Shown: positions 23,816 through 62,941 of the stretch, in pieces | How positions within the stretch are numbered: the first letter of the stretch is position 1 | Layout of the letters: each line of letters opens with the position of its first letter | Source of the DNA: Zootoca vivipara | Lineage: Eukaryota | Length of the DNA stretch: 64,000 nt | Assembly: GCF_963506605.1 (NCBI RefSeq) | Contig: NC_083279.1 | Coordinates: 17,236,001-17,300,000, forward strand | Reading direction: 5' to 3' | The notes under the pieces: generated by a model | Databases searched by the model: none | The model's input: only the letters and a program-made list of their open reading frames with translations | What the model was told of the DNA's origin: nothing | Made by a program: the position numbers and the translations under genes

Positions 23816-23894
23816 GAGGGGTAGACCTATTCTTGGGCCTTGGATAATGTGTGAACAAACTCTTGGTTTTGCCTCCATTCTTTATTAAAGCCAT

Positions 23895-23934
23895 TGTTGT
23901 TGCTTAGTCGTTTAATCGTGTCCGACTCTTTGTG
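23895..23934 (-). mobile_element. BovB (RTE) 3' end, left half of the Ngaro target
   Basis: TTGCTTAGTCGTTTAATCGTGTCCGACTCTT matches 45171-45201. Confidence 0.8.
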
Positions 23935-24324
23935 TGGCTATGTCCCTCCTTCCCACATAATCAAGACTCGTGACACAGAGATTAAGATTTAATTGGGTGG
24001 TTAAGGCCACAACTTTATTGATAAGCATGTTGAGCGGAATTGGCTTAGGCGTTGGAACCTAACAGACTATATCCGACTCCAACCCGTGTGTTGGAGTCCC
24101 TGAGAAGTTAACCACCAGCAAGGAGCCCCGCGATGTAGATCTACTAGAGCTCCTCCTGTGGCCACCGAAGGGGCGTGCCCTACGGCCCAGGCAACTCCAG
24201 GCTCAGGACCAAGCGACGCCCCCGGAATCCTTTAACGGAATTACTTCTCCCGATTTGGGCAGCCGTTGACGTAATCTGCCCCTCCTCCTTCTATTGTTAT
24301 GCAAATTTCCAACGCCTAACCGCC
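23928..24324 (-). repeat. Split direct repeat B2 (3' terminus), 397 bp
   Basis: Identical by eye to 24699-25095 (offset 771); minus-strand AATAAA at 24019-24014. Confidence 0.95.
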
Positions 24325-24482
24325 TAACCTAAGTTGTGACGACATGCTACGGGGTAGGCGAAAAACCCATCATGGCTAGCCCAGTATGGGAAAAGTCCTA
24401 CCCGGCCCGCTGACTAACCAGGCAACCGACTCCCGTCCATAGCAGCGTCCCCTTACCTCTTTTTAAGGGGTGGGTGGGCGGG

Positions 24483-24705
24483 TGAACTGTTCGCTCCGGC
24501 GAACAAGGGGAAAAGAGGTCGGCTTCCCGCCTGCGGGGAGCTTTAAAACTGCCGGCTCCGCCCCGACCATTCTCATTGGCTGGTCGGGGATGACGCAGGC
24601 GGGAAGCCACCAACGCGTAGGGGCTGAACTTGCAGCCCCTACGCGGTGGTGCAGTCGGTCGGCCCACAACGCCGCTTCCGTCGCAGGCGCGGAAGCGGCT
24701 TTGTG
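24483..24705 (-). repeat. Split direct repeat A2, 223 bp
   Basis: Identical by eye to 31612-31834 (offset 7129). Confidence 0.95.
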
Positions 24706-25095
24706 TGGCTATGTCCCTCCTTCCCACATAATCAAGACTCGTGACACAGAGATTAAGATTTAATTGGGTGGTTAAGGCCACAACTTTATTGATAAGCATG
24801 TTGAGCGGAATTGGCTTAGGCGTTGGAACCTAACAGACTATATCCGACTCCAACCCGTGTGTTGGAGTCCCTGAGAAGTTAACCACCAGCAAGGAGCCCC
24901 GCGATGTAGATCTACTAGAGCTCCTCCTGTGGCCACCGAAGGGGCGTGCCCTACGGCCCAGGCAACTCCAGGCTCAGGACCAAGCGACGCCCCCGGAATC
25001 CTTTAACGGAATTACTTCTCCCGATTTGGGCAGCCGTTGACGTAATCTGCCCCTCCTCCTTCTATTGTTATGCAAATTTCCAACGCCTAACCGCC
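24699..25095 (-). repeat. Split direct repeat B1
   Basis: Identical by eye to B2; overlaps A2 by the 7-bp core CTTTGTG. Confidence 0.95.
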
Positions 25096-25222
25096 ACTCG
25101 AGCCCCCCCCTGGGCTCGCCGCCAATCCGCTCTCATGCCTTAACCAATAATTAGAGATTAATTGGATATTTTAGGGACTTCATATACTGTTTAAGGGGCC
25201 GTGATCCTCCTCTCTTATTCAC

Positions 25223-25798
25223 CTAATTAAATTCTCTAACACGTAACCATTCTTTGATCCCCATTATTACGTTCTCTAGCCAGACATCATTCCCTCTGGG
25301 CGACAGATGAACACCATCATGACGATAAAGGGCTGCTTCGCTCTGTTTTAACGTTGGATGCGAAATGGCACGACCATTCAAAGACAGGACTCTACGGATT
25401 ACGAAGGAATTCAGGAGCCGTCTGGCTCTGTTCAGGGCGATAGGACAACGACCATCACGCCAACTGCGTCTCTCAAGCAAGGAGGACCAAAGCAGCGTCA
25501 TCCTCGGGCAAATGTCCAAAAGGGCATCAAAGTCTCTGAATATTTGTAATTTTAAGTCCACGGCATTGCGATAGGCAAGATCATTCTCTCCAAGCTGGAC
25601 CACCAGTAGGTCAGGGTAGCCGAGTGAAGCAGCCTGTTCCTGTATTGCCGGCAGCAACTCGTCCCACAGCATGCCTCTCCTCGCAATCCAAGACACCTGG
25701 ACGAATTCTGGAAGGCCCAGCCTGTTCCCTAGGCCCAACTCGATGGCCCTTTCACGAGCCCAATGGACTATGCTATGCCCAGCTATCCAAACCCGCAC
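25223..25798 (-). CDS. SGNH/GDSL-family hydrolase (esterase) ORF of the Ngaro element
   Basis: Motif blocks VWIAGHS (I), RG (II), VQLGEND (III), DGVH (V); annotated start is GTG and there is no upstream ATG. Confidence 0.85.
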   Translation of the reverse strand: MRVWIAGHSIVHWARERAIELGLGNRLGLPEFVQVSWIARRGMLWDELLPAIQEQAASLGYPDLLVVQLGENDLAYRNAVDLKLQIFRDFDALLDICPRMTLLWSSLLERRSWRDGRCPIALNRARRLLNSFVIRRVLSLNGRAISHPTLKQSEAALYRHDGVHLSPRGNDVWLENVIMGIKEWLRVREFN

Positions 25799-25859
25799 GA
25801 TCCGAGAACCTGAAATTCAAGAATGACAACCAGGGATCAGCCAGGCCACCGTGTCGACG

Positions 25860-26768
25860 CTACGCGCGAATATACCTTTTGTACGCATTCGATTTCCACC
25901 TCCCCAAGTCCTGAATTCTTTCGGATGAGAGGCCCAGATGCATGGCTGACGTAGCCGCGCCAATCCTAAAGGAGTGTGCAGAGAATTCATTGGGATTATA
26001 GCCGCAGGAGGCAATGGCCTTGCGCAGAACCCTAGTAAATTGGTGGCGGGTGAGCCTAGCGCTATCCTGGTGGATCAGCAATGGACCTGGGCCGGGGGGC
26101 CGGAGATAAAGATACCGTCTGGTATCTTTAACCGGACATGGACCCGGGGAACCAGTGGCGGGGAGCTTAATAGTCGCGCCCCTTCCCCTCTGGTCCGTTT
26201 TGGAACACCGTATGAGCACCTGCATTTGGGAGTCAACCAGTGACACGTCCTGCATGAGAATGCCGCGTGTGATACCCTGGGGGGAGTCCTCACATACCAC
26301 CTCGCCCACTCTTAGCGCTCCAAAATATGCTATAGAAAAGGCTGCGGAGAAAAGGCGCGCCTCAAATTTGGACCAACAGAGGGACCTCAACTGCCTGTGT
26401 ACCTGAGCCAACATGTCAAAGGTAATGGGACGCCTGGGGTCGCTGACAGGCGGCTGGAGCCTGCGCCAGCCCTCCATAGCCCTACGCAAATGGAAATTGT
26501 CACACGGGTCTGTAAAATAGAGTGCTTTTGAGAAGAATGTGATGGCTGCTGTGTGAATGTTAAGAGTCCTTGGTGCGCGCCCCAGGTTCCTCAAGTGCAC
26601 TACATACTGCATGACCTCCTCCGGGGAAGGTGGGGCCCGAAGGGGAGCAGAGGTCTGTCTCTGCCTGAACGTAGTGAAGTCTGACCAAGCCCGTTTATAC
26701 GAGCTCAGTGTAGACGGGGCAACGGAAGCTAATACTCCCTTTAGGATCTCTCGCTCCCAAGGTTCCAT
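25860..26768 (-). CDS. Tyrosine recombinase (YR)
   Basis: Catalytic motifs GALRVGE (R), SKTDQ (K), HSFRIG (HxxR), LGRWKSNAYKRY (W, Y); ATG start. Confidence 0.95.
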   Translation of the reverse strand: MEPWEREILKGVLASVAPSTLSSYKRAWSDFTTFRQRQTSAPLRAPPSPEEVMQYVVHLRNLGRAPRTLNIHTAAITFFSKALYFTDPCDNFHLRRAMEGWRRLQPPVSDPRRPITFDMLAQVHRQLRSLCWSKFEARLFSAAFSIAYFGALRVGEVVCEDSPQGITRGILMQDVSLVDSQMQVLIRCSKTDQRGRGATIKLPATGSPGPCPVKDTRRYLYLRPPGPGPLLIHQDSARLTRHQFTRVLRKAIASCGYNPNEFSAHSFRIGAATSAMHLGLSSERIQDLGRWKSNAYKRYIRA

Positions 26769-28588
26769 AGCTGTTCCGGGAACGGCTCCGGCGACTGGCT
26801 TGCCTCCGGTGCCAACGATCGGAAGCGATCCATCTGGAAGCGAGACAGAGCATCTGCGATATTATTATTGACCCCTGGCACAAATTTGGCAGAAAAATGC
26901 ATATTCAACTGCAAACTGAGTAACACGAAGTGGCGTAGGAGGGAGGACACCCTCGTCGACCGCGTGGATTGCCGAGATAGAACGCTGACCACCGCCTGGT
27001 TGTCGGTTCTGAAGCAGACCCGCCGGTTCCTGAAATCCTCGGACCATAGGTGTACGGCTACTACTATGGGAAAGAATTCTAAGAATGTTAAGTCGCGTGT
27101 GATGTCTGTACCCTGCCAGCTGGCCGGCCAGCGCTGCGAGCACCATTTACCTCTGAAGTAGACCCCGAAACCCAAAGCACCTGCCGCATCGGATTGCACT
27201 TGGAAATCGGCCCGCAGCAACATGGTGTCCTGCCATAGTGACACCCCGTTGTAGCTCTCCAGAAACATCAGCCAGGATTCAAGGTCGGCCCTGACCCCGC
27301 AGGGGAGGCGCTTCCTATGATAAGGTTTGGTTAAGCCCACCGTGAGCCTAGCTAAGCGCCGGCAGAATGGGCGACCCGGTGAAATAACCCTGCAAGCAAA
27401 GTTGAGGTGCCCTAGCAGTGATTGCATTTGTCTAAGGGTAAGTTTTTTAAGGGGAATGAGTTGCCTAATGGTCTCTTTGAGGGCGAGTAGTTTATCAGAC
27501 GGCAGGCGTGAGGTTTGTGCGACCGTGTCCAGTTCTATGCCCAAGTACGTAAGGCGTGAGACGGGCCCTTCGGTTTTTTCGGCAGCCAGTGGAACCCCTA
27601 ACTCCTCTGCGAGAGCTGAGAAGGCCCGCATAAGGCCTGCACACTCGGAACTGCGAGCCCCAGCCACGAAGAGAAAGTCATCCAGATAATGCGAGACCCC
27701 TGGAAGGCCTGTCCTGAAGCGCAGGGCCCAGTCCAGGAATGTGCTAAAGGCCTCAAATGCGGCACATGCCACGGAGCAACCCATCGGCATGGCCTTGTCA
27801 ATGAAATATGCCTCATTGAATCTGAAACCCAACCATTTATAGTCCTGCGGGTGAACAGGGAGTAGGCGAAATGCTGATTCGATGTCACATTTCGCCATTA
27901 ACGCCCCCTTGCCAAATTGCCTCACTAACTTCACCGCCTGATCGAATGAGGCATATTTCACAGTGCACAGCTCCTGGGGTATTCCATCATTGACTGACCT
28001 GCCCATCGGGTGGGAAAGATTGTGTATGAGCCGGAATTCCCCGGGCGCCTTCTTGGGGACTATTCCCAATGGGGAGATGTGGAGATCAGGTATCGGTGGC
28101 GACGCGAACGGGCCAGCCACGCGTCCTGCTGAGATTTCCTTGTTAATTTTCTTAATGGCTATATCAGGCCTTTCCCTAATGGATTTTTGATTGGGGGGTT
28201 CACCCGTGCTAGGTGGGGTACGCACGGGAATACGGAAACCTGTTGAAAACCCTTCCCACAGGTATTTTGCTGCATCTCTATTGGGGTAACAGTCAAGCAG
28301 TAGTTTCAGAGGGTGAAGCTTTACAGGGGAGTGGGCCAGGGCGAGTGATCTATTAGTATTTATTAGTCCCCGAGATTGATCCCTGGGGGGCACCTGAGGT
28401 ATTTCTGGGGCCCTGGTGCGAGTTGCCCCTGGCGCCACGAAAGGACTGCCTCCCCTTAAAACACGAAACTCCCGGGTGCTGACCCAAACACTTTTCGCAT
28501 TCGTGGGAGTACTTACAGTTGGGTCGCTGACAAAGGCCCTTGTTATATTCCCAGCAAACCCTGCGTCGCGGGTCCCTCTTGTGCTCAA
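26741..28588 (-). CDS. Reverse transcriptase and RNase H (pol)
   Basis: KCDIESAFR, MPMG and YLDD RT motifs; RNase H motifs SDAAG, LEFFP, TDNQ, IADALSR; true start unclear. Confidence 0.95.
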   Translation of the reverse strand: MSTRGTRDAGFAGNITRAFVSDPTVSTPTNAKSVWVSTREFRVLRGGSPFVAPGATRTRAPEIPQVPPRDQSRGLINTNRSLALAHSPVKLHPLKLLLDCYPNRDAAKYLWEGFSTGFRIPVRTPPSTGEPPNQKSIRERPDIAIKKINKEISAGRVAGPFASPPIPDLHISPLGIVPKKAPGEFRLIHNLSHPMGRSVNDGIPQELCTVKYASFDQAVKLVRQFGKGALMAKCDIESAFRLLPVHPQDYKWLGFRFNEAYFIDKAMPMGCSVACAAFEAFSTFLDWALRFRTGLPGVSHYLDDFLFVAGARSSECAGLMRAFSALAEELGVPLAAEKTEGPVSRLTYLGIELDTVAQTSRLPSDKLLALKETIRQLIPLKKLTLRQMQSLLGHLNFACRVISPGRPFCRRLARLTVGLTKPYHRKRLPCGVRADLESWLMFLESYNGVSLWQDTMLLRADFQVQSDAAGALGFGVYFRGKWCSQRWPASWQGTDITRDLTFLEFFPIVVAVHLWSEDFRNRRVCFRTDNQAVVSVLSRQSTRSTRVSSLLRHFVLLSLQLNMHFSAKFVPGVNNNIADALSRFQMDRFRSLAPEASQSPEPFPEQLWNLGSERS

Positions 28589-29852
28589 ACCTGGTGGACC
28601 TAGGTGGATCCGTATGTTTCCTTTCTACATATGGGACTACGTGATTGCTCCAAAAATGCTGGTGGCGCTGATCCCACCTGGTTTTGGGGTTTTGCGAAGC
28701 ATTCCGACGGAAGTCTTCATCGTAATTCAGCGCTGCCGCCTCCCCGGCCATCCTGTAGGCCATCCTAACATCAGCTATGTAGGCCATAAGGTGCATGGCC
28801 CTTTTTGGATAAGCAGCTGTTATCACTGCAATCCAAATATGCATTCCATCCAGCCAATTCTCGAACGTGCGGTCAGCCCGCGGCGTCCTATGCCTGCGCC
28901 TACCATACTCCTTTCTCTTTTCGCCCTTTCCCAGCGTATGGGACAATGGTAAGAGGGTGAAAATGTCTATAAAATCACCATTCAAGATTTTTTCCCTTGT
29001 TTTATTTGATAAATGGGATCCCAGAATGATATCCGTGTCTGAGTTGGTAGAATACTTTGAGTCCGGTATCAAAGCACCATCCCTCCACTCTAACGTCCCC
29101 TTGAAACCCTTACGGTGGGTGCTGGCTCTCCTCTTATGCACCCACAAAGGAAGACCCATCTGATCCTCTGCAATCCCCCAATAATCCTCCATTGGGATCT
29201 CCTCATCCGAATCGGACGTACCTGAGTCATAGGAGTCGTCATCCTTAGCTCTCTTACGCTTGTTGGTTTTCTTCTTCGCCTTTCCGCTCCGCTGACGCTC
29301 TTCTCCGTCCCGCGACGCCGCTTCGCCACTTCCCGCCGGCCTGGAGTTGTCATCGTCCCCCGATGTATCGGAACCCCCAGCTTCCCTTTGCGCCACTGGT
29401 TGCACAGGCTGGGCCCCTGGGAGACCTGCAATAGACTGTGAGGACTGCCCGGGCGAACCTGCTGCTTGAGCCCCGGCCCCCAGGCTATGGGCATCGGGAG
29501 CATTAGATCGCGCCTTCTGCCCCCGTGTCCGTGGGGCCTGGCTCGCAACGCTTCCAGGCTCGGAGCTAGAGCTGGCGAATAAGGAAGCCGAGGTGCCCGG
29601 CGATCCGCCCTCTGAAAAATAAGTATCTAAGATACAATCCTGAGACTCGGCAGGCTCGACCTGGGACTCACGAGGATCATCCTGCGTGGCCTCAGCTGCG
29701 GGGGCCAAAGATTTTGCAATGGCCGCCAGCTGTTTGCAAACATCCAGCTGGGTCTTCTGAAGCGTGGAGACCACACGTACCAAGGCCTCAGTCTTGTCCT
29801 GAGCTGCAGGAGTCTTGGAGGGGGCCGAACCTCGCACACGCTTGGGTGCCAT
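28353..29852 (-). CDS. Gag-like ORF1 (first ATG at 29852, MAPKR...)
   Basis: N-terminal amphipathic helix, basic NLS-like KAKKKTNKRKRAK, C-terminal Cys/His cluster CWEYNKGLCQRPNCKYSHECEKCLGQHPGVSC typical of YR-retrotransposon gag. Confidence 0.85.
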   Translation of the reverse strand: MAPKRVRGSAPSKTPAAQDKTEALVRVVSTLQKTQLDVCKQLAAIAKSLAPAAEATQDDPRESQVEPAESQDCILDTYFSEGGSPGTSASLFASSSSEPGSVASQAPRTRGQKARSNAPDAHSLGAGAQAAGSPGQSSQSIAGLPGAQPVQPVAQREAGGSDTSGDDDNSRPAGSGEAASRDGEERQRSGKAKKKTNKRKRAKDDDSYDSGTSDSDEEIPMEDYWGIAEDQMGLPLWVHKRRASTHRKGFKGTLEWRDGALIPDSKYSTNSDTDIILGSHLSNKTREKILNGDFIDIFTLLPLSHTLGKGEKRKEYGRRRHRTPRADRTFENWLDGMHIWIAVITAAYPKRAMHLMAYIADVRMAYRMAGEAAALNYDEDFRRNASQNPKTRWDQRHQHFWSNHVVPYVERKHTDPPRSTRFEHKRDPRRRVCWEYNKGLCQRPNCKYSHECEKCLGQHPGVSCFKGRQSFRGARGNSHQGPRNTSGAPQGSISGTNKY

Positions 29853-30184
29853 TATCAGGTTGTAGCCAAACACTATTCAGTATTATTATTATAATTATTT
29901 ATAATTTGCTTATTTATTTATTATTATTACCCTGTTTACCTCTATATATTATTATTTATAATTATATAATTATTTTATTTATATCTTAGTTTATTTTAGA
30001 TATATAATTATACGGGCTTATAATTGTCAGGTTACCGGTTTAATGCTATTATAATGTATTATTGCTAAGCCTCACCACAGGGGGGACGAATGAGCTATGT
30101 ATATAAGCGAAAGACAAGTCCCAAGTCGCTAAGCTCAGCAAAAACTTTTTGGCCTCCGCTGAACAGATCGCCTATAATGCCTCG

Positions 30185-30510
30185 GCAGCGGGTTGGACTG
30201 GATGACCCTTGTGGTCTCCTCCAACTCTATGATTCTATGACCCTAATCGATTGCTCCCTGGATAAGCCACTCGCCCGCACACAGCTAAATGCTTTGCAGA
30301 GGGTTGTTCTGGAAGGCCCCCGTGGACTCTTCCAGCTCTTATGATTCTATGATTCTATGTTTATAATTAGTTGTTCCAAAATTCCACTGGCCAGCACTCA
30401 GCTAATGCTTGGCGAGGGGGTTGGACTGGATGGCCCCTGTGGCCTCCTCCGACTCTATGTTTCTATGGCTCTAATTTGTTGTTCGCAGATACACCACTGG
30501 CCACAGGCGC
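30185..30510 (+). repeat. Triplicated ~115-bp unit containing a CR1-type 3' tail, inside the Ngaro leader
   Basis: GGGTTGGACTGGATGACCC...CCAACTCTATGATTCTATG at ~30190, ~30301 and ~30417. Confidence 0.75.
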
Positions 30511-30699
30511 TGGCCTCAAGATGCCAATCAACTTTAACTAGCTTATTATATCTTAAAAATTAAGTTCCCTATGAAAAACTCGATTGTGTACTGTGAATAT
30601 TAACTAGTAAAACCCAGCCAGCCGATAGGGTGCACTAGTCCACCAGACACCACAGAAGTAAATAGCAGTAAATGTAGCCAGGCAGCACAAGTGGCCACT

Positions 30700-30980
30700 C
30701 TCAAGATGGCCGCTGAAGAAGGGACAGTGTTTGCCCACACCTAAAATGGCTGCCGGGACAGGGTTTGCCAACACCTAAAATGGCTGCTGGGACTGAGTCT
30801 GCCCACACCCAAAATGGCTGCCGGGACTGGGTTTGCCCCCACCTAAAATGGCTGCTGGGACTGAGTCTGCCCACACCCAAAATGGCTGCCGGGACTGGGT
30901 TTGCCCCCACCTAAAATGGCTGCTGGGACTGAGTTTGCCCACACCTAAAATGGCTGCCGGGACACCTAAGATGGCTGCCG
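30700..30980. repeat. 34-bp minisatellite (~8 units) in the Ngaro leader
   Basis: AAAATGGCTGC at 30743, 30777, 30811, 30845, 30879, 30913 and 30947. Confidence 0.9.
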
Positions 30981-31611
30981 GCAGGAGTACTCACACGTGC
31001 CCTTCTTAAAATGGCGGCTGAAGAAAGGACAGGGGCTTGCCCTTAACCAAAATGGCTGCCGGACAGGATCACAACAAACAGATAAGTAACAAGAGCCGAA
31101 GCAAAGCAACCTAAACAGGGTATACGTGGCCGGCAAAGTAAACAAGCATGGAAAACTAACCACAGCCGTAGCAAAACAATATACACCGTAAGCAGGACGC
31201 CCACCACCCGATTCCAGGGGATAAGGCAAGGAACCACCAGGAACTATGACGGGGGGGGGGGCCCACGTTCACTCACCCAGCTGTACCGCGAAGAAAACAG
31301 ATCCAAGGTACGAGGGGGAGAGGGCGGCAGCCGCCTCCGCTCTTAGCCACCCAGCGAGCTTGCCAGCAGGAAAAACAAGAGGGCAGCAGGAATCCGCGGC
31401 GGATGGGGTGCTCCTCTCGGCTGCGAAAGCCCCAGCGCTCCCTCGGTGGTTAACTGCTTTCAGGCTGCAGCTGAGTGTCGTATATCCCCGGCGCTGCACC
31501 TCCGTGAACAGCTGGTAAAACAGCGAGGCCCCGAAGGACAACCAAAAACAAGCTAACTGGAACAGCGAGGCACTACAGGAAATAAGGACGGAAAAGCGCG
31601 ACAAGCTATGC

Positions 31612-31834
31612 TGAACTGTTCGCTCCGGCGAACAAGGGGAAAAGAGGTCGGCTTCCCGCCTGCGGGGAGCTTTAAAACTGCCGGCTCCGCCCCGACCATT
31701 CTCATTGGCTGGTCGGGGATGACGCAGGCGGGAAGCCACCAACGCGTAGGGGCTGAACTTGCAGCCCCTACGCGGTGGTGCAGTCGGTCGGCCCACAACG
31801 CCGCTTCCGTCGCAGGCGCGGAAGCGGCTTTGTG
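31612..31834 (-). repeat. Split direct repeat A1 (5' terminus)
   Basis: Identical by eye to A2. Confidence 0.95.
31668..31730 (-). promoter_or_regulatory. Putative Pol II promoter in repeat A
   Basis: Minus-strand order TGCGTCA (CRE-like), CCAAT, GGGGCGG (GC box), TTTAAA (TATA-like), pointing towards gag; duplicated in A2. Confidence 0.5.
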
Positions 31835-31940
31835 ACCCCATGGACCAGAGCACACCAGGCACTCCTGTCTTCCACTGCCTCCTGCAGTTTGGTCAGACTC
31901 ATGTTGGTGGCTTCGAGAACACTGTCCAACCATCTCGTCC
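31828..31940 (-). mobile_element. BovB fragment, right half of the Ngaro target
   Basis: GTGACCCCATGGACCAGAGCACACCAGGCAC... continues collinearly with 45203-45311. Confidence 0.85.
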
Positions 31941-32445
31941 TTTAATTCACATTTTGGTAATTACAAATGACTCAGTTATGAGAGTGTTTCTCAGATTGTA
32001 CTTCAATTAAGGTCATGGGAATTCATATAAAATAAATTCTGAAGGGGGGGAATGTTAAATAATGAACAGCACTTGTGGGTTTTTTAAAAAATCCATTGTG
32101 CTGCTAATTAGCTAAAGTTCATGTCTCCTGACTACAAATCAGGGAAGACTTTACTGACTTGATCAGTTGAATAAAGGAACCAGAGAGCTGTGGTGTTTTG
32201 TTTTGAAACACAAATGCTGTGCTTCCAATGATACTTACTGGGATAATTTGTACTAAAGGAGTTACTGACCACGTTTCTTAAACTAGAAAACATGCACTCT
32301 CTGATCCAGCTAGTCCCTTGCTGGATGTTGAATGATATACACAGAGGTGGGGCCAATAATGTAGAACACTTTTTGTAGGATTATATACATTTCTGTAGAC
32401 TTGTTTTATCAATAACTCTCAGTCATTATAACCGTGGACTCTTAT

Positions 32446-36585: not shown

Positions 36586-38134
36586 TTCAAACATGTTTTA
36601 GAATTAATATTGTGATTAAAAGTATGCTTAAATGCACATATTTAAGCATGTAATAAAATGTGGATTTTTCTGTGTACATAATTGCAGGTGAATGCAAAAA
36701 TGGAAAGTAACAGATTTTGGGTCTATATCACAGGGAAGTGAAATGGACTGGAACTAGATTTTCTAACCCTTTGCTTATAGTAGGGGTTGAGAGGTGTGTG
36801 GTGATTTAGTTTGAAGTGAAATGGCATTTAGATGCTGAGCCAGGGGTAGACAATATGGTGTTCTCCAGATGTTGGATTGCAACTTCTATCGGCCCCATTG
36901 CCAATGGTAAGAGATGGTGAGTCCATCAACATCTGGATGACATCATGGGGGTTCTCCTAGTTCTAGGCTATTTAGTATTAACTACATCGCTTGTGCAGAC
37001 TCCATCAAGCCCTTAACTCCTCTGAGTAAGATGCTGTTTGTATTGCAGTAATTCAAAAGATTATTGTATTGGGGGGGGGGGGAAGTTATGCTACAGCCAA
37101 TATCTGAGTTTGAAGTTCTTCCTTCAGTCTCCCACGATGTGCATGTTTAAAACCTGCCCCTTACTCTTATATAATAGTGACAACAGAAAGAGTTTTGGTA
37201 CTTAATGAGTCAGGTACTCTCCCACAGCAGTGTTGTAAAACAGAAGATACTAATTAAAACTGAGAAAAATAGGATGATAAAACATTTACAATTGTAGATG
37301 TGAGGATATGAAAAACAAAAGCTACATGGATGAATAAAATAGCAGGCTGTAAAGCATCCCACATTAACTTAAGTGTATGTGCATGCAGATTACAGAAAGT
37401 CAGCAAACACAACCCATTTGGCATGTTAAGAAAATGGCTGAGGTGCAGTCGTGCAAAATATTGGAAATGATGAAACACTTCTGTGATTGCACACGATCCT
37501 TTGCAGCACTTCACCCAAGGCATTTCTGTTCCATATACATGTCATGCTAGGCACCTTTTCATACACCACACTGAGGGAAACTGGCTTGCAACTCCTGTAG
37601 CTAATTGTAACTCCCTGATGAGTGGGCCTGCACACGGTTGCAAACAATTTTATTTTATTTTTTGCCATATTCACACAAATTTTAATATGCACCTTTCACC
37701 TTCAATCCTTTATGGGTTTACCTGGGATTGCCTCAGTTTGGGTTGCACTATTAAATAATCTTGGATAAAGGAATAAAAATTGAATGCCTTAATAGACACT
37801 AAAGGGACGACACACAAACATATAGATTTACCTCAAGTGTGTTCTTGCTTACCTTTGGGCAAGACTTGTTAATTTGGGGTCTGAATCTGCACTTCTCCAG
37901 CCCTGGGGCCTAGGTAGTAGAACTTAACCAGTGATAAGGACCACAGACTCTAGACTGTAACTGAAATTAATCAAATTTACTGGTGCGACTTATTTTCTCC
38001 TCCCCAATGGTTTCTTCTGCCCCTTCTATTTTCAAAACATTTTAGCTATTTCCAAGCTGTTTATTTACCTAGCAGCTTTATTTCAGATAAAATCATAACT
38101 ACTACTGTTATGATTTGGGAAGTTGGATCCTCCT

Positions 38135-38978
38135 CATAAAGGGTCCATGTTGCGTGTGGCTCCTGGACTCCCTCCCCCAATTAGCTGAGATGCGGGGCTT
38201 TGCCCCACAAGTAGCCAGTGGTGACACGATCACGCCAAGGGCTTGTTAGCCAATTAGGGGGTGTTGGCGTGATCGTGGACTGGGTATAAAATGGCAGTGT
38301 GATGTGGGCGCATTCTTCTTCTTCTTCTTCTTCTTCTTCTTCTTCTTCTTCTTCTTCTTCTTCTTCTTCTTCTTCTTCTTCTTCTCTTGCTTCATGCTGC
38401 CGAACACCCACCCACCCTCCTGGTTAAGTCATGATGGGCTTTGCTTTGGACTTCAGTTGGCCGCCGGTTTTGGAATGGGGGCTGGGTAGGAATTTTTCCA
38501 ATGTGGCAAATTGGCAGTGGCCGCTTGGTTTTTGCCCACCTCTTAGCAATCGTCACAACTTTGAAAGGTTTGGAGGTTAGGCATTGGTTTGGGGGGAGTG
38601 TGGGGAGGGGAGGTGTGGCCATCACCTGGCCCTCCAAGTTATATGGTATTCCGTTAAAGGAATTTGGGGGTCTGGATCTCATCCGAAACCTGGGAGGAGC
38701 TAGGGCCACGCCAGGACTTTCGGGAGCTCCAGGGGTGAGCACCAGTCAATAGCCATCAATGGTGCTCCCCCTGTCATAGTTTACCGTTTGCGGGCCTCCT
38801 GCTGGGTAGGCAGGGGCAAGTTATAGTCTGGATACCAATGCCTAAGCCAATACAATTCCTACTTGTGTATTTAATAAAGTTGCGGCATAAATTTTGCCCA
38901 ATAACCTTTAAACTAAATTCTGTGTCCATCATGTCTTTATTTCTATAGGGGATGGGTTTCGGGGCTTGATGCGCAAAG
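38135..38978 (+). mobile_element. Solo A-spacer-B remnant of a related Ngaro-type family
   Basis: Collinear blocks shared with the reverse complement of 23928-24480 (GGGTAGGA.TTTT.CCA, GTCACAACTT, TTCCGTTAAAGGA, GCCTAAGCCAAT, AATAAAGTTG.GGC, TCTGTGTC); ends resemble the CACAAAG core. Confidence 0.65.
38315..38384. repeat. (TTC)n microsatellite
   Basis: Seen directly. Confidence 0.95.
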
Positions 38979-41066
38979 AACCCAGCGATGGAACTACACT
39001 GAACTCTGTAAATGCTTTGGGTTTTCGAGGGAAATGTAAAAAAATAACCAAGAACAACAAACAAACACCTTGCTGTAAGTCTAGAGCGTTCCTGGATCAT
39101 GCCAACCAACTTAATACCAACATCACTTTCAAATCAATTTTTGTCCTTGCTCTAAAGTTGGTGCAGGAACACCTGCCTGGCATGCAGAAGCTCCAAGGGA
39201 GGGGTGGGAAAGTCTCCTGTCTGAAACTTGGATAGCTACTGCCAACTAGTGTGGACAGTACTAAGCCAGGTGAACCATGGTCTGAGAAGGCAGCTCCATG
39301 TGTTCCTAAAGCTTCTGTCTTGTGTGATTATTTCAGGGATTCTTTCTGCTTTGCTTAAGCAGATCAACAGGACTTGTAGCCCTCTAGAGATAAACACAGG
39401 CATTGCCAGTTGGAATGTACACCAAAACATACAAATACTTAATTCAAAGCAAATATATAATTTGTAAGAGGTGATGGATCCCCACTCATAAAAATTAATA
39501 AAGCTTCATACAAGGTTGCTGGGCTTTCTCTCTCACATACAATTCATGTGTCTTTATTAGCTGTGTGAACACTACAAGTTGAATAGTTTATCTGTGCAGG
39601 ACAAGGACAACATAAATATATATGGATATCTTTGGGGGAAGGCTAGAATTCCACTCTTATGATGTATCTATTAGTCAACTGCCTAGCTTTAGCTAGAAAT
39701 GAAAGGCACTCACACCCAGATCAAACCCTGTCCTTTAGTCTTCACAATTCTCTTTTGCTAATAAAAATAACAAAATAAAAATAAAAATAATAAATTATTC
39801 CAACTAAGACCAACAAAGTTTGTTATTGGTATGAGCTTTCGTGTGCATGCAGATTTTCTGATGTTTGTCCACTGGAGTCAGTAGGTGGCCGGTGTGCCTG
39901 TTGGTGGTTTCTTTTAGAGTTGAGTCTTTTGGGGAAATGCCCTATGAATGAAATTATGTTTTAAAGACGGGAAATACAATTTTATATTGTGCTAGCTCTA
40001 GCTTTAAAAAAGAGAAGAAGAAAAAAAGAAATCAGCTAAAACAGGAGAAGGTTACACATCAAAGAATTGCCCTTTTGGTATACTACAGAAAACTTGGCAG
40101 AATTCTAGAAGTTTTATCTATCTGCTTTGGATAAATCCATTTGAACCAAGAGATCTGAAAAGTTGCAAGCCAAGACTTTCTTTTCAGAAGTCAAAAGTTA
40201 ATGTGAATTTACTTCATATAAGATTATAATAATGTGCTAGCTTAACACAATATTTAAGTCCAAAGAAGTGTGGTATTGATCTCGTACCCCCCCCACCTTT
40301 TATTGCAGGCAGTTCTGTCCAGGAAAGAATGTATTTTTAAACTTTTGCTGTTACTCTGCAGCAATCTCCGTTCAGTGCCATCAGAAGAAGAAGCAAGGCC
40401 AGTGCACTGGTGGGGAATAAGGATGGAAATGTGTCATGTTAAGGCAGATTTATGTGCTACTGTGGCTCCTTCTGCAAAGCTTATTCTTGTTGCTCCTTCT
40501 GGTGCCTTACTGATAAAGTAGAATTCTTGTCATCACATTAGTAATCCAGGCTATGTGTTTATTTCCCAAAAAAAGAATTAGTGGTGCAATGAAAGTAAAA
40601 TATAACAGAATGCAGGAGCATTTTTCTTTTTTTATTATTATCCTGAATTACTGGTGCAGTTGTGAAACACAGTTTTAGGGGCCAGCCCTATGTGGCAGAA
40701 TGGTGATGGAAGTAGCTGGGCACTGGCTTAAACACCTACTATAACACAGTGAGTGGAAATTAGGCTGCTGTGTACTTTGGAGGATACTTCAAGGAGTGAA
40801 AGTGCTGAATGCTCCAGGTACTAATCATGCCTCTGTATTCCATATCAGCTGGAATCTGGATTGGAATTCTGGATGTGGATTTTGGAATGAAATCTGGTTC
40901 CACCACACTGTGATTGGTATGGTATTTTCAATGAATTTGTTTTTTTTTTTGGTTTTTGTTTTTCTGCCTGGGAAAGAATAGCAGGCAGTGTCAAGTTATT
41001 TTGGTACCCAGGAGAGAGGTGTTTCTGTCCTCAGTTGCCATAAAAATAATAATAATAATAATAATA

Positions 41067-45170: not shown

Positions 45171-46050
45171 TTGTTTAGTCGTTTAGTCGTGTCCGACTCT
45201 TCGTGACCCCATGGACCAGAGCACACCAGGCACCCCTGTCTTCCACTGCCTCCTGCAGTTTGGTCAAACTCATGTTAGTAGCTTCAAGAACACTGTCCAA
45301 ACATCTCGTCCTCTGTCATCTTCTTCTTCTTGTGCCCTCCATCTTTCCCAACATCGGGGTCTTTTCCAGGGAGTCTTCTCTTCTCATGAGGTGGCCAAAG
45401 TATTGGAGCCTCAGCTTCAGGACCTGTCCTTGCAGTGAGCACTCAGGGCTGATTTCCTTCAGAATGGATAGGTTTGATCTTCTTGCAGTCCAAGGGACTC
45501 TCAAGAGTCTCCTCCAGCACCATAATTCAAAAGCATCAATTCTTCGGCATTCAGCCTTCTTCATGGTCCAGCTCTCACTTCCATACATCACTACTGGGAA
45601 AACCATAGCTTCCACTATACAGGCCTTTGTCGGCAAGGTGATGTCTCTGCTTTTTAAGATGCTGTCTAGGTTTGTCATTGCTTTTCTCCCAAGAAGCAGG
45701 CGTCTTTTAATTTTGTGACTGCTGTCCCTATCTGCAGTGATCATGGAACCCAAGAAAGTAAAATCTTTCACTGCCTTCATTTCTTGCCCTTCTATTTGCC
45801 AGTAGGTGATGGGACCAGTGGCCATGATCTTAGCTTTTTTGATGTTGAGCATCAGACCATATTTTGTGCTCTCCTCTTTCACTCTCATTAAGAGGTTCTT
45901 GAATTCCTCCTCACTTTCTGCTATCAAAGTTGTGTCTTCTGCATATCTGAGGTTGTTGATATTTCTTCCAGCAATCTTAATTCCATTTGGGATTCATCCA
46001 GTCCAACCTTTCGCATGGTGAATTCTGCATATAAATTAAATAAGCAGTTA
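45171..46050 (-). mobile_element. BovB (RTE) LINE 3' fragment
   Basis: ORF 45316-45927: ...LNIKKAKIMA...FTFLGS...MYGSESWT.KKAE.RRIDAFELWCWRRLLRVPWTARRSN, the classic BovB RT C-terminus. Confidence 0.92.
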
Positions 46051-49723: not shown

Positions 49724-50183
49724 TGTCAGGGGATTGTTGTGGCTACTCCCGAGTAAAGACGCTCCAGTCCACTCTGTCTTTAAGAGTTTTATTGTGCATA
49801 CTATTTACAGTGCAGAGGCATCAGAAAACATCAATGCCTAGCCGCTCTCAGAATCCGGCAATACCGCCTTCCGGTTTCTGGTCCAACATAAGAGCTTGGG
49901 GACCCCAAAACACCTCCCCTTCACCTTACGTCTGGGTGCGCGCCTCAAATCGGGCGCCGGAAGGGGCTGCGTCCCATCTCCCCTTTGTTGGCTGCGACGT
50001 TGCTGTGACTCCGCTGCGTCACTGAGCCTTCCTTCCTCTACTGGCCTTCTGTGCAAGGGCTCAGCAGCATCTTGGAGCCCTCCCTCCATACCGCTCCCTC
50101 CTGACCCGCTGCTGACGCTATCACTGGGCGAAGTGCTGGTCAGGATGACTGGGGGAGGCTCCCTGTAAGGAGTCCCCCTGACA
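49724..50183 (-). mobile_element. Solo LTR
   Basis: TGTCAGGGG...CCCCTGACA termini; TSD TCACT/TCACC (1 mismatch); TTTATT near 49788. Confidence 0.7.
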
Positions 50184-51917
50184 TCACCTTTTATAGTTGT
50201 TATCTGGTTGTTATTCCTTCTGGTTCTCCTTCTGTCATATCTTGTCATATCTTGAATACTATCAGTCATACGTAGCATTCCATAGTAGACTATGTCTTCC
50301 CACATTTCACCTGCAATTGCAAGAAACTAGTTTTGAATGCATTGCTCAATAGTGGACCTTCCAGAAATTGGATATGATCAGTCTCACTACCATTAACACG
50401 TGACTGATAAGCTAGTGCACCTGGCCCACCACCAACAGAATTTCTGCCTCTTACTTCGGGGCTGGGGGTGGTGGTGGCAGAGAGGCTGGTACATTGATTG
50501 ATGCAATGCAGCACTCCCAACAATGTGCTCACTTAGTGTCATACCTTCTCCACTCGGTAAAAGGCAGGTGCATGGTGGTGCCCCCCCCCACTTACCATCC
50601 ATTCCTGATTCGCTCGCCTCGCCTTTCTGATTTCTGGTAGATTGCAAAATTTGAGGCTTATCATGCATTTTATGGACCATCACACACTGATAGTAAGCTC
50701 TGTTCAGCTTGGAAGATCACAAGTTGTGAAGCCCTTCTGTAGAAGGAGACACCATCCCATAGAATAACCTCTTTGCACTTGATTTAGCCTATGTTAGAAT
50801 ATGGTAAACCTTAATTACTAATGCATCTTCTTATTTAAAGACAACAGCACCGTTTGCAGAATCGTTCAGCCGTTGGAATATGTTTCAGAAGCCCATAGCA
50901 TATCTCATTTAATGCATTACTGGAGTTGCCTTCTGGGGTTTGAGATGCCCCCAGTCATTCCTCTTTAGTGTATCTCATTTTTGAAGACATCAGTCATTTA
51001 ACTCCGGAGGCTACTTATGTTCCATGCAAACTCACTGCCTCCTCTAGTTTGTTTCTGAAAATTATTCACATCTGAAATAATCATTGCCCTCAGGTTATCA
51101 GGAATTATTTTCAATAAAAGAATGAATGCCACAGCATGTTAAGTTCTGCACATGAAAGAAACTTTTGTGTCTCATTTGAGGCCCTTGTCCTTTATTGTGT
51201 TCAGCAGCTGAGCTGCGGCAGGATGAAGGAGGTGCCTGTAGCTATTTATTTATTTGTCTGACTTCCTTCAATCAGGCTCATTGGGTGTTCAAGGAGATCT
51301 CTCTGCCTGACACTAGCCCAACACATACCTGTTTAGCAGCAGCAAAGTTGCCAAATGATCATCATACGCCTTGAGACAACAGCCCTCCCTAAGCCTCTCC
51401 TTTCCTTCTCACATCTTATTGCTTGTCTTACCAAACACAAGACAGCTAATGTTGCAGTCACAGTTACACGCCTGATAATGATTTGAGATGACCAAATTCT
51501 TCCTAACAATTACATGTTTCGGGGGAAAACAAATTCTCAGCTGCAGTTCAACATTTCTCGTTACCGTGGGAAACAGGTTCCCCCCCCCCAGCCCCAAGAA
51601 ATGCTTGTATAAGGCTGTTTGCTTCTTCAGGCTGCATACAATTATGTGTCGATAAAACTAGAGCTCTATTCAGGTGCTCAAAGGACACACAGGGGAATAA
51701 GGTATAGAAGGAACACTGAGCCAGACATGTCATCCCAATGTATCCATCCCTACCAATTCCACCCCAACATATTGTGGTGTTAAATCCAAGGCGGGGTTCT
51801 TTCCACATTAAAACAAAAAAAAACTTAGAAGACTGCTTTTCCCTTCACAGAGCTACAGTCCCCAGAGTGGTTTAGCAATCAATCCCTCTTGGCAGTGAAC
51901 CAGTTCTCCCATTGAGG

Positions 51918-57806: not shown

Positions 57807-59282
57807 GGTGCCATCTTGAATAAAATATGGTATTGGGAGTCAGGTAAGCCCCACCCCGCATAATCAATCTCAAGATGTAGTGCACACACACCATTTGAAT
57901 GGCAATGCTCATCAACTCAGGGGGTGGCCCCCTCAAATATTTTACTGGGAGGCCAAAGGGACCTCGGCCCCTCGGCCCCTAGGTATTGGCTCCTATGTGA
58001 GAATATGTTCAAGTACCTTCTTGCTAGACTTCCATGGGTTCTATTCTCGAGTGTGCCATAGAAGACATGGGGTTTGCCAGATCACTTCCTATGCAGCACT
58101 ACTCCTCTATTGGTCACCAGCTGTGCTGGTGTGGGAAGCCTCAATGAGTTCTTAGCAAACGGTGTGATTGGCCCTTGCATGTATTGTCACAGGGACATGG
58201 AGCCCGATATAAATGTGACCATTTGACCATGCCTCCTGGGTAATGTATAATTTTAACTTTGGCTGCGAACTGACAGAGGCCTCAAATAATAATTGAAGTT
58301 TCTGATGTAGATGACAAATGATATTTGGTCTCTAGAAGTAATCTAAGCTGCATGCTAGTTTCTTCTCTGACACGAGAATCAGGAGGGTACTTGTACAAGA
58401 TGATATGTTTGTAGATTTATGCTTCTTTTATTCTGAAGAATACTTAGCCTGCAGGGGGAAAATATATATAGAAAAGGACCCTTCTAGTATGTGCTTTGCT
58501 TCTTCAGATGGGTCCCTGTTGACTCTCTGGTTGCCTCTGTTGACATTACAGAGAACCTCCAGTCAAGGGAGCCCAAAAAAATATTTCCTTCTGACAACTC
58601 TTATAACAGTGAAAAGCAGTGTATATTTAGAGCTTGTTTCTCTATAGAGAGTCCTTGCTTGTGCAGTCCATGTCCTTGTTCACACAGCTACTGCCCCCAT
58701 TGACCTAAAATTTGCCACTGTTGAAACACCAGTGACCTTTATTTCAAGTTAACAAAGAGAAAGGGGAGGAGAGTTTTCTCTACTGCCTTTAAAGAGTGCT
58801 TAAAAGAAAAAAGAAAATAAGAAAATCCAATGTCAAAACATTGAAATTAGATCATTCTCATGATGCAAAACACTAACCTCCAGCCTTGACATGCAGGGAT
58901 GCATACTTTGAATTGCTTTTGTTCAGTTGCTGCCAATGGGAATGAATCAGACTAAAGCCAACACATCTGGTTTCTGTGGCTTATGGACTGAAATGAAAAT
59001 GTAGCAAGAAGCTAAAAATTCAGACTGTTGCCCAGTTAAAGGGTTTTCAATTGATCAACCATATCTCTCTTGAGTCAACTGATTGTTAAAAAGCAAATAA
59101 ATCTCCATATTACCAAACTGTCAAGAGAGGTGCATTTTTTTTTAGATATTAAAATACATTAAAATAAACTGGGTGATCACTCACAATTTCAAGTATAAAA
59201 TAACTGTTCCTGGTTAAAAGAGGAGGTTATATAGATTGTGGAGTTTCCTGATGATTATATTAGGATCTGTTCTTTTAAACTT

Positions 59283-59470
59283 AGAATCATAGAGTTGGAA
59301 GAGACCACAAGGGCCATCCAGTCCAACCCCCTGCCAAGCAGGAAACACCATCAAAGCATTCTTGACATATGCCTGTCAAGCCTCTGCTTAAAGACCTCCA
59401 AAGAAGGAGACTCCACCACACTCCTTGGCAGCAAATTCCACTGTCGAACAGCTCTTACTGCCAGGAACTT
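59283..59470 (-). mobile_element. CR1 3' fragment
   Basis: AGAATCATAGAGTTGGAAGAGACCACAAGGGCCATCCAGTCCAACCCC...TTCCACTGTCGAACAGCTCTTACTG. Confidence 0.8.
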
Positions 59471-61530: not shown

Positions 61531-62437
61531 GGCTAGAACAATAGGTCTTTGGTCAGCTCTGTTACTTTGACATGGGTGTATATCTTATTAAAAGTTAGAA
61601 GAATGCACACCGCTGCCATCAAAAATGGCAGCAGTATGTGGCGCTCTCCAGTCTCTGTGTAATGTAGAATGGCAAGTTACCTTTGGTTCGTGCATAATTG
61701 CATAGAATATTTCCTCACTGTCTCCTACTCCACATTGGTGGTCGTCAATGCCAGTGGAATGACACCAGTACACATGCAAACTTTTTTTTTTTTTAGATGA
61801 TCCCCACCGTTTTGGACATAATATTAATTTGAGGATAAGGCTAGTAGTGACTACTTGCCACTGTTCTGCCTCCATGCCTCTGAATGCCAGTTGATGAAAA
61901 TCACTAGTAAGGATCTGCTTGTGGGCTTCCCATAGGCAATGGATTAGTCAGTGTGTGAACAGAAGGCTGAGCTAGATGGCCCATTTGGTCTGATCCAACA
62001 GGCCCTTGTTGTGATTTTTGGGTAGTGTCACCTTCAGAACTTCAAATCAGGGAAACCCATATGAACATTTGTTCAAAGTTCTCCGAGAAAGTGGTAGGGG
62101 GAGAAAGACCTCACTCTCACAGGAGTTGAATACTGTAGTTCAGTGAAATGGGACAGGTAAGGATCCTGTAAATTTCTAGTTGTTATGACACAAAACCTCC
62201 CAGATAGTCAGTGTGACAACAAAACAGAAAGCAGCTTTCAAGAATATATTTGTCAATAGTAGGGATGAATGAATCTGTCAATTTCAGTTTCTCTGTTTTC
62301 CAGGCTTAGCTCATCCCCCCCCCCCAACACACACATTTCTACAGCAATAGATGGTGAAGGGGAGAAAATCTCTTACGAAGTTCCTGCAGCCAATCCGAAG
62401 CCTTGCTGCCCGCAGCTGAGGTAAACCCGGCGAGGCC

Positions 62438-62759
62438 ATGGATGGAGAGGCTGGTGGGCAGGTGGTGGGTCTAGGTTGTGCCATGGGCATTGTGACGGGC
62501 ATATCACGGGGTTTCAGCCAGAGCTTGGCGTGCCTGCTGGCCCCGCGCCAGGTGCCCAACTTGGCGCTGCTGCTGGTGGGGGGCTCAGCGGCCACGCTGG
62601 AGCAGCTGGAGGGTGAGCTGTGTGCCACCTACTCAGCGCTCCATGTACGCAGCCTGCCCACTGACCTGGCCTCAGGTGACAGGCCGCAGCGCATGGTGCA
62701 CACCACCTGGGAGCTCCGTGGGGACGGGCCGATGAAGTGGCTGCTGCTCGTCAACGGCA
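62438..62759 (+). pseudogene. SPR: Degenerate copy of sepiapterin reductase exon 1
   Basis: GLGCAMGIVTGISRGFSQSLACLLAP...LEQLEGEL...LHVRSLPTDL...LLLVNG resembles SPR ([25 protein letters not shown]...LRQLEAEL...LRVVRVPADL...LLLINNAG, from memory); phase-1 GTGAGC donor at 62760; TGxxxGxG and NNAG motifs damaged. Confidence 0.7.
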
Positions 62760-62786
62760 GTGAGCGAGTGGCCCCGAGACACACTC

Positions 62787-62941
62787 CTGAGCATGTGCAG
62801 AGTGTGTTCCTCCTCCAGGTCCGGAGGCAGCTGTGGGACTGGCTTGCAGGGTATTTATATTTTTCAAAATATAGTCCGCCCCCTCCACAAGGTCTGAGAG
62901 ACAGTGGACTGGCCCCCTGATGAAAAGGTTAGCTGACCCCT
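62787..62941 (+). mobile_element. One end of a hAT-type MITE
   Basis: TAGTCCGCCCC...GGACTGGCCCCCTGATGAAAAGGTTAGCTGACCCCT resembles a Charlie/MER30-like terminus; the other end was not found. Confidence 0.55.

Follow-up and report, generated by a model that had tools for sequence, protein, structure and literature searches.

The window, a stretch of 64,000 nucleotides of Zootoca vivipara contig NC_083279.1, contains an intact young Ngaro element on the reverse strand and, on the forward strand, a shorter unit without coding sequence, which very probably is a complete Ngaro A-spacer-B unit, whatever the route by which it arose (Table 1). The intact element shows split direct repeats in the order A1-ORFs-B1-A2-B2, genes encoding an RT/RH and a tyrosine recombinase, no methyltransferase, and an SGNH ORF after the YR; its assignment to Ngaro is based on this repeat layout and ORF content. 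It fits the layout of the amphibian Ngaro-like elements DIRS-53_XT and DIRS-54_XT (A1...B1-A2-B2, four ORFs, an SGNH hydrolase after the YR and an A of 236 bp) with its A of 223 bp and its SGNH ORF, but B has 152 bp in the amphibian elements and 397 bp in the intact element (bioRxiv 2021.08.05.455354). The intact element is inserted within a short repeat (23880-23934 and 31828-31941), of which an uninterrupted copy is located at 45199-45312 (94% over 114 bp), and this target repeat shares the seven-base core CACAAAG with the junctions of the element. The repeat resembles a BovB/Sauria-type 3' tail. The 1.7-kb leader of the element contains a 34-bp tandem array (seven copies, 30721-30963) and three similar short segments at about 30180-30470, one of them with an inverted match at 59282-59338 (93% over 57 bp); we take these segments to resemble CR1-type tails. 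Elsewhere in the window, the open frame 62420-62920 (+) is sepiapterin reductase-like over about 100 residues (E=1e-9) and may represent a first exon or a pseudogene, and a 162-codon open frame at 49838-50326 (-) shows neither a Pfam match nor similarity to Ngaro proteins. No other Ngaro protein remnants were found in the 64 kb by tblastn with four Ngaro proteins.

Table 1. Coordinates of the features of the unit and of the intact Ngaro element in the window
Feature	Position	Strand	Observation
Whole unit, read as A-equivalent, spacer and B of Ngaro type, without coding sequence	38135-38978	+	844 bases
Left core-like heptamer CATAAAG, proposed left junction	38135-38141	+	within the GC change-point interval
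A-equivalent promoter segment, in the position of A	38135-38406	+	no detectable homology to the A of the intact element
Perfect 14-bp inverted repeat (38225-38238 / 38264-38277) around CCAAT	38225-38277	+	length reached by 0/100 shuffles
CCAAT box	38250	+	sequence
TATA-like box TATAAAA	38285-38291	+	sequence
(TTC)24 microsatellite, occupying the site where A has a short pyrimidine tract close to its 3' end	38313-about 38385	+	
Spacer, homologous to 24325-24482(-)	38407-38571	+	z=23.6
B repeat, homologous to 23928-24324(-)	38572-38978	+	z=29.3
Predicted long-range stem at the base of the folded B domain (38577-38588 with 38834-38845)	38577-38845	+	0/100 shuffles, each element
AATAAA poly(A) signal	38873-38878	+	predicted unpaired in the unit (folding)
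Right core-like heptamer CGCAAAG, junction with the right flank	38972-38978	+	common to a second individual and a second species
Intact young Ngaro element	23928-31834	-	CACAAAG at all three junctions
A1; A2	31612-31834; 24483-24705	-	identical over 223 bp
B1; B2	24699-25095; 23928-24324	-	identical over 397 bp
Unique spacer between A2 and B2	24325-24482	-	158 bp
gag-like ORF	28353-29876	-	
RT/RH ORF	26741-28624	-	RVT_1 E=3e-12; no other Pfam family
YR ORF	25860-26861	-	Phage_integrase E=1e-4, below the curated cut-off
SGNH ORF (ORF4), after YR	25223-25816	-	nearest Atlas clusters SGNH/GDSL, score 0.97-0.98, without alignment
Unique tract just upstream of B1	25121-25149	-	predicted pairing with 24787-24815

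Homology and ends of the unit

A sequence-only reading of this DNA had described the unit as a solo A-spacer-B of a sister Ngaro family, sharing nine collinear blocks with the intact element. The unit contains all nine blocks, and their order agrees with that in the intact element, the block GGTTTTT.GCC.ACC being matched with one optional base. Eight of them are exclusive to the two elements within the window (two or three matches, both strands), and the block TCTGTGTC shows five matches on both strands. Local alignment of the unit to the reverse complement of 23928-24705 gives a score of 220, against a shuffle mean of 28 (0/300 shuffles as high), and this signal comes from the spacer and B. 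In these two segments 368 of the 523 aligned bases are identical, so the unit belongs to a sister family of the intact element and is not its copy. The alignment proposed by the sequence-only reading therefore stands for the spacer and B and is not confirmed for the A part, which reaches only z=2.4 in local alignment (11 of 300 shuffles as high) and z=-0.07 in global alignment once the core and the array are removed (515 of 1000 shuffles). Three tests of sequence homology between the A part and the intact A were all not significant or marginal, so the identity of the 5' segment as A is an inference from position, length and layout.

The 5' segment shows a promoter-like layout similar to that of the intact A. 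The CCAAT and TATAAAA motifs reported earlier are both present, at offsets 115 and 150, versus 126 and 157 for the CCAAT and the TATA-like box of the intact A. Both segments also contain an inverted repeat at a length not reached by any of 100 shuffles each: 14 bp from offset 90 in the unit, surrounding the CCAAT box, and 15 bp, perfect, from offset 97 in the intact A, where it encloses the TATA-like box too. The segment 3' of the array resembles the A2/spacer boundary (3/300 shuffles) and not the A1/leader boundary (248/300), and the B of the unit is preceded by the spacer, as is B2 in the intact element. Without the (TTC)24 array the unit measures 772 bp versus 778 in the intact element, a difference of 6 bp, in agreement with the earlier estimate of about 770. 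The array itself seems to be an expansion of the pyrimidine tract that lies close to the predicted transcription start in A; at about 48075 and 61415 there are two further (TTC)n arrays, with unrelated flanks.

Both heptamers proposed as ends of the unit, CATAAAG and CGCAAAG, were found at their positions. They are alike in five of seven bases and have AAAG in common; the two end regions have ten direct matches of 4 bp in all, AAAG included. The pattern CRYAAAG, which was defined post hoc, is found eight times on the forward strand of the 64 kb, two of them the ends of the unit, and heptamers with at most one mismatch from CACAAAG number 122 in the window, one per 525 bp. The left end is placed by three features of the unit itself, not by other copies: the core-like heptamer, the agreement in length and a change in GC content. 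The best change point is 38117 or 38141 depending on the window size, with intervals spanning 38110-38159. The right end is supported by reads: in both raw runs the multi-copy depth stops in the bin 38946-38985, with zero depth from 38986. Comparisons of the flanks of the unit with B, A, leader and ORF4 sequence, six in total, are all at chance (53-269 of 300 shuffles), and a truncated copy with remnants of B1 or leader flanking the unit was rejected on these comparisons.

The frequency of near-CACAAAG heptamers, the post hoc definition of CRYAAAG and the z-score of the A interior would agree with another reading, in which only the spacer and B are Ngaro-derived and the 5' 270 bp are unrelated GC-rich sequence, or another repeat, beside a truncated copy. 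This reading is unlikely, because the length agrees within 6 bp, the offsets of the CCAAT and TATA-like boxes are similar, inverted repeats of 14-15 bp are located at a similar offset, and a GC change point is located at the predicted end. What stands of the solo A-spacer-B description is the spacer/B2 context, the clean flanks and the absence of terminal features of an LTR; what does not is the sequence homology of A.

Copies, age and origin of the unit

A search of read runs with 38390-38978 lists 24 runs, 20 of them containing part of the query. Reads were mapped on 38386-39585 at 80% likeness, and four of the 24 sets were used: two raw runs and one contig set belong to organism A and one contig set to organism B. 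Runs X3-X14, which contain a small share of the query words, are left out of the evidence. The mapped interval starts 3' of the microsatellite, and the left end and the A part of the unit are outside it. Read depth peaks at about 540 at 38546-38585 (3' half of the spacer and start of B), falls to 11-18 in the variable middle of B and is about 100 around AATAAA; in the right flank it has a mean of 0.9 over 11 non-repeat bins, a noisy baseline with no reads there in X22. These depths suggest several hundred related spacer/B copies, with a subfamily of roughly 10-20 closer ones. A solo-to-full ratio from spacer versus B depth was rejected, because depth follows conservation across families. A short low-copy repeat unrelated to the unit is present in the right flank (39186-39305, read depth to about 34).

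Near-identical copies are few: only two of 1279 and five of 1233 reads in the two raw runs are at least 99% alike to the unit. Contig X15 record 8, of a second individual, spans 38907-39585 with four differences (among the 16 pieces listed; 1495 more exist), and contig X2 record 15, of organism B, covers 38693-39571, with 13 gaps and 51 differences in 873 letters, a divergence of 5.8%. Further X15 copies (records 2, 3, 5, 6 and 7) differ 12-19% from the unit, and in record 7 the match reaches 38976 and so misses the last two bases of the core. Since the right junction is common to a second individual and a second species, the insertion is old and fixed, while the intact neighbour is young; the CpG depletion of the unit (observed/expected 0.37 vs 0.71 in the intact element) agrees with this age. 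The mapped reads and contigs revealed neither a full-length parent of the unit nor a locus polymorphic for full and solo forms. One loose end, in three X2 contigs before 38593, shows the start of B after non-spacer letters (among the 24 rows listed; 560 more exist) and could be a B1 junction, the sequence being too short for proof. Pattern scans gave five loci in metagenome contigs and five in viral contigs, all ten chance matches: none shows a tblastn match to four Ngaro proteins, and the only blastn match, of 23 bp, is at the pattern itself.

The unit is probably the solo A-spacer-B remnant of a member of a sister Ngaro family, whose coding middle was deleted after insertion. A full element (A1-ORFs-B1-A2-spacer-B2) would have been inserted long ago by its recombinase at a short A-rich core, either AAAG or a seven-base core since decayed, presumably without target-site duplication. 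The stretch from A1 to B1 would then have been lost between the two A repeats. Homologous recombination of the host and the recombinase of the element, using the left junction and the B1|A2 junction as its sites, would have the same product, in which a promoter segment is followed by the spacer and a single B that contains the poly(A) signal. This remnant would have been fixed before the two species split, as seen for the right junction, and would have been decaying since. On the DIRS replication model it should be unable to rebuild its own ends, its transcript having no B|A junction.

In the DIRS model a circle is integrated at a short shared sequence, and the ICR of DIRS-1 was shown to be essential (PMC7192593). 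The recombinase of the element could resolve a circular intermediate at its two identical B|A junctions, and the resulting mini-circle of A, spacer and B, 771 bp in the case of the intact element, could integrate directly. The CACAAAG core at all three junctions of the intact element and the standing model of circular intermediates integrating at short shared sequences (PMC7192593) agree with such a route, and its product would have the same anatomy as a deletion solo. We consider it improbable, since the resolution step is conjectural and recombination after insertion is simpler and has been proposed in print (PMC8547959). A1 x A2 recombination, recombinase excision and small-circle insertion give the same sequence, so they are separable by allele comparison only.

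The sequence-only reading had also offered non-autonomous mobility; in such a case the unit would be transcribed, and Ngaro proteins would retrotranspose it in trans. The promoter-like and poly(A) signals, the hundreds of related spacer/B copies, the action in trans of the DIRS-1 RT (PMC7192593) and the same question left open for SIRE (PMC6681497) speak for it, but the transcript from the TATA-like box to AATAAA would have no 5' part of A, no 3' part of B and no B|A junction, no young subfamily of near-identical copies was found, and two species share the insertion. By analogy with the DIRS-1 ICR, the missing B|A junction makes independent retrotransposition unlikely, and this explanation is disfavoured as very improbable. 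A solo LTR of a gypsy element or an endogenous retrovirus, whose size and order of promoter, pyrimidine tract and AATAAA the unit resembles, is hardly credible given the collinear Ngaro spacer/B homology and the absence of a TG..CA pair with a 4-6-bp TSD in any combination of 38080-38200 with 38920-39030.

Conserved blocks and predicted RNA fold

The suggestion that the conserved blocks mark cis-acting signals is supported: they are the deepest-covered segments among the hundreds of copies and are mostly predicted stems. The conserved non-coding bases are located in the 3' half of the spacer, at the start of B and in the region around AATAAA, and most of them are predicted to be paired. The B regions of both elements fold better than shuffles (z=-2.76 and -2.78; one and two of 100 shuffles), and both predicted B domains are closed by the same stem of 12-13 bp, formed by the start of B with the segment before AATAAA, in which the unit shows one A-U pair where the intact element shows G-C. 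The fold of the intact spacer and B2 has 140 confident pairs, of which 134 are alignable to the unit and 80 are unchanged. Among the 54 changed pairs 26 are still canonical, against 17.3 +/- 2.9 expected (12/5000), including 10 of the 13 double changes when the intact fold is projected on the unit. The reverse test, with the fold of the unit placed onto the intact element, was not significant (14 of 48 changed pairs canonical vs 10.6 +/- 2.5; 627/5000), and general complementarity between spacer and B in local alignment does not exceed chance in either element (388 and 266 of 500 shuffles).

Among the 40 variant rows listed, of 347, 33 are inside the unit, and 14 majority variants are located on predicted pairs. 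Pairs broken in the unit are restored by the majority read letter at eight of ten listed sites (six with the letter of the intact element and two with another pair type), and one of four intact pairs in the listed rows is broken by the read letter. Being single-site tests on pooled families, these counts mainly show the decay of this copy from a conserved fold. A search of 38000-39100 against Rfam gave a single match, snoZ247 (E=0.033, below the gathering score), taken as chance, and no family for the fold. Paired RNA stems, as predicted here by folding, are new as the main content of the conserved blocks.

Poly(A) choice and known solo units

B1 and B2 are identical and each contains an AATAAA, but the transcript must pass B1 to carry the B1|A2 junction, which poses a problem of choice. 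In the folding predictions the tract unique to the B1 context buries the first four bases of the B1 AATAAA, whose unpaired probability is 0.03-0.07 with 80-160 nt of upstream context, 0.20-0.23 with 300 nt and 0.09-0.34 with a nascent 3' end. The complementarity responsible is modest, being reached by 15 of 1000 shuffles, and was noticed post hoc in one element. Behind the spacer, the first four bases of the B2 AATAAA are 0.81-0.96 unpaired and the last two pair with the end of the spacer; in the unit all six bases are 0.86-0.95 unpaired. Spacer and B may thus form a conserved RNA switch for the choice of the B2 over the B1 poly(A) site, with dispersed solos as promoter/terminator modules filed as LTR-like, a reading we hold as tentative and rather doubtful. 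Since solos keep the 'open' form of AATAAA and a promoter, the hundreds of copies could be such dispersed modules. The buried B1 versus exposed B2 AATAAA as a model of poly(A) choice is a new hypothesis; no literature on such a switch was found in a search with most subscription papers, the founding Ngaro papers and supplements outside its scope.

TOC1 of the alga Chlamydomonas is a non-autonomous DIRS-order element. According to Day et al. 1988, its loss reportedly leaves a solo unit of left repeat, unique part and right repeat. In Cafeteria burkhardae, Ngaro elements are accompanied by solo AB repeats, proposed to arise from recombination between 5' and 3' repeats and likened to solo LTRs (PMC8547959). 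These are likewise isolated A+B units, but the unit described here has an animal host and a unique spacer of 160 bp between A and B, and is an old copy common to two species. SIRE of Trypanosoma cruzi consists of A2, a short unique region and B2 of VIPER, its origin and mobility being stated as open, and like the unit it is the A2-to-B2 part of a YR retrotransposon with split direct repeats; VIPER belongs to a separate YR clade, and its internal region has about 30 bp, versus about 160 bp here (PMC6681497). The word 'solo' is absent from the main text of bioRxiv 2021.08.05.455354, the part of PMC3783388 covered makes no mention of solos, and no report of squamate Ngaro solos was found in the literature searched, repeat databases, supplements and most subscription papers being outside its scope. 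The solo A-B phenomenon is already published, and the unit is a further example, apparently in an animal lineage in which no report was found.

Annotators of repeats should be cautious with LTR-like units that have neither TG..CA nor a TSD, since these can be Ngaro solos. Comparing the two sister families is more informative: it shows the non-coding bases that Ngaro elements keep and, between the unit and the intact element, hints at how Ngaro elements may pick the end of their transcript at B2 over B1.
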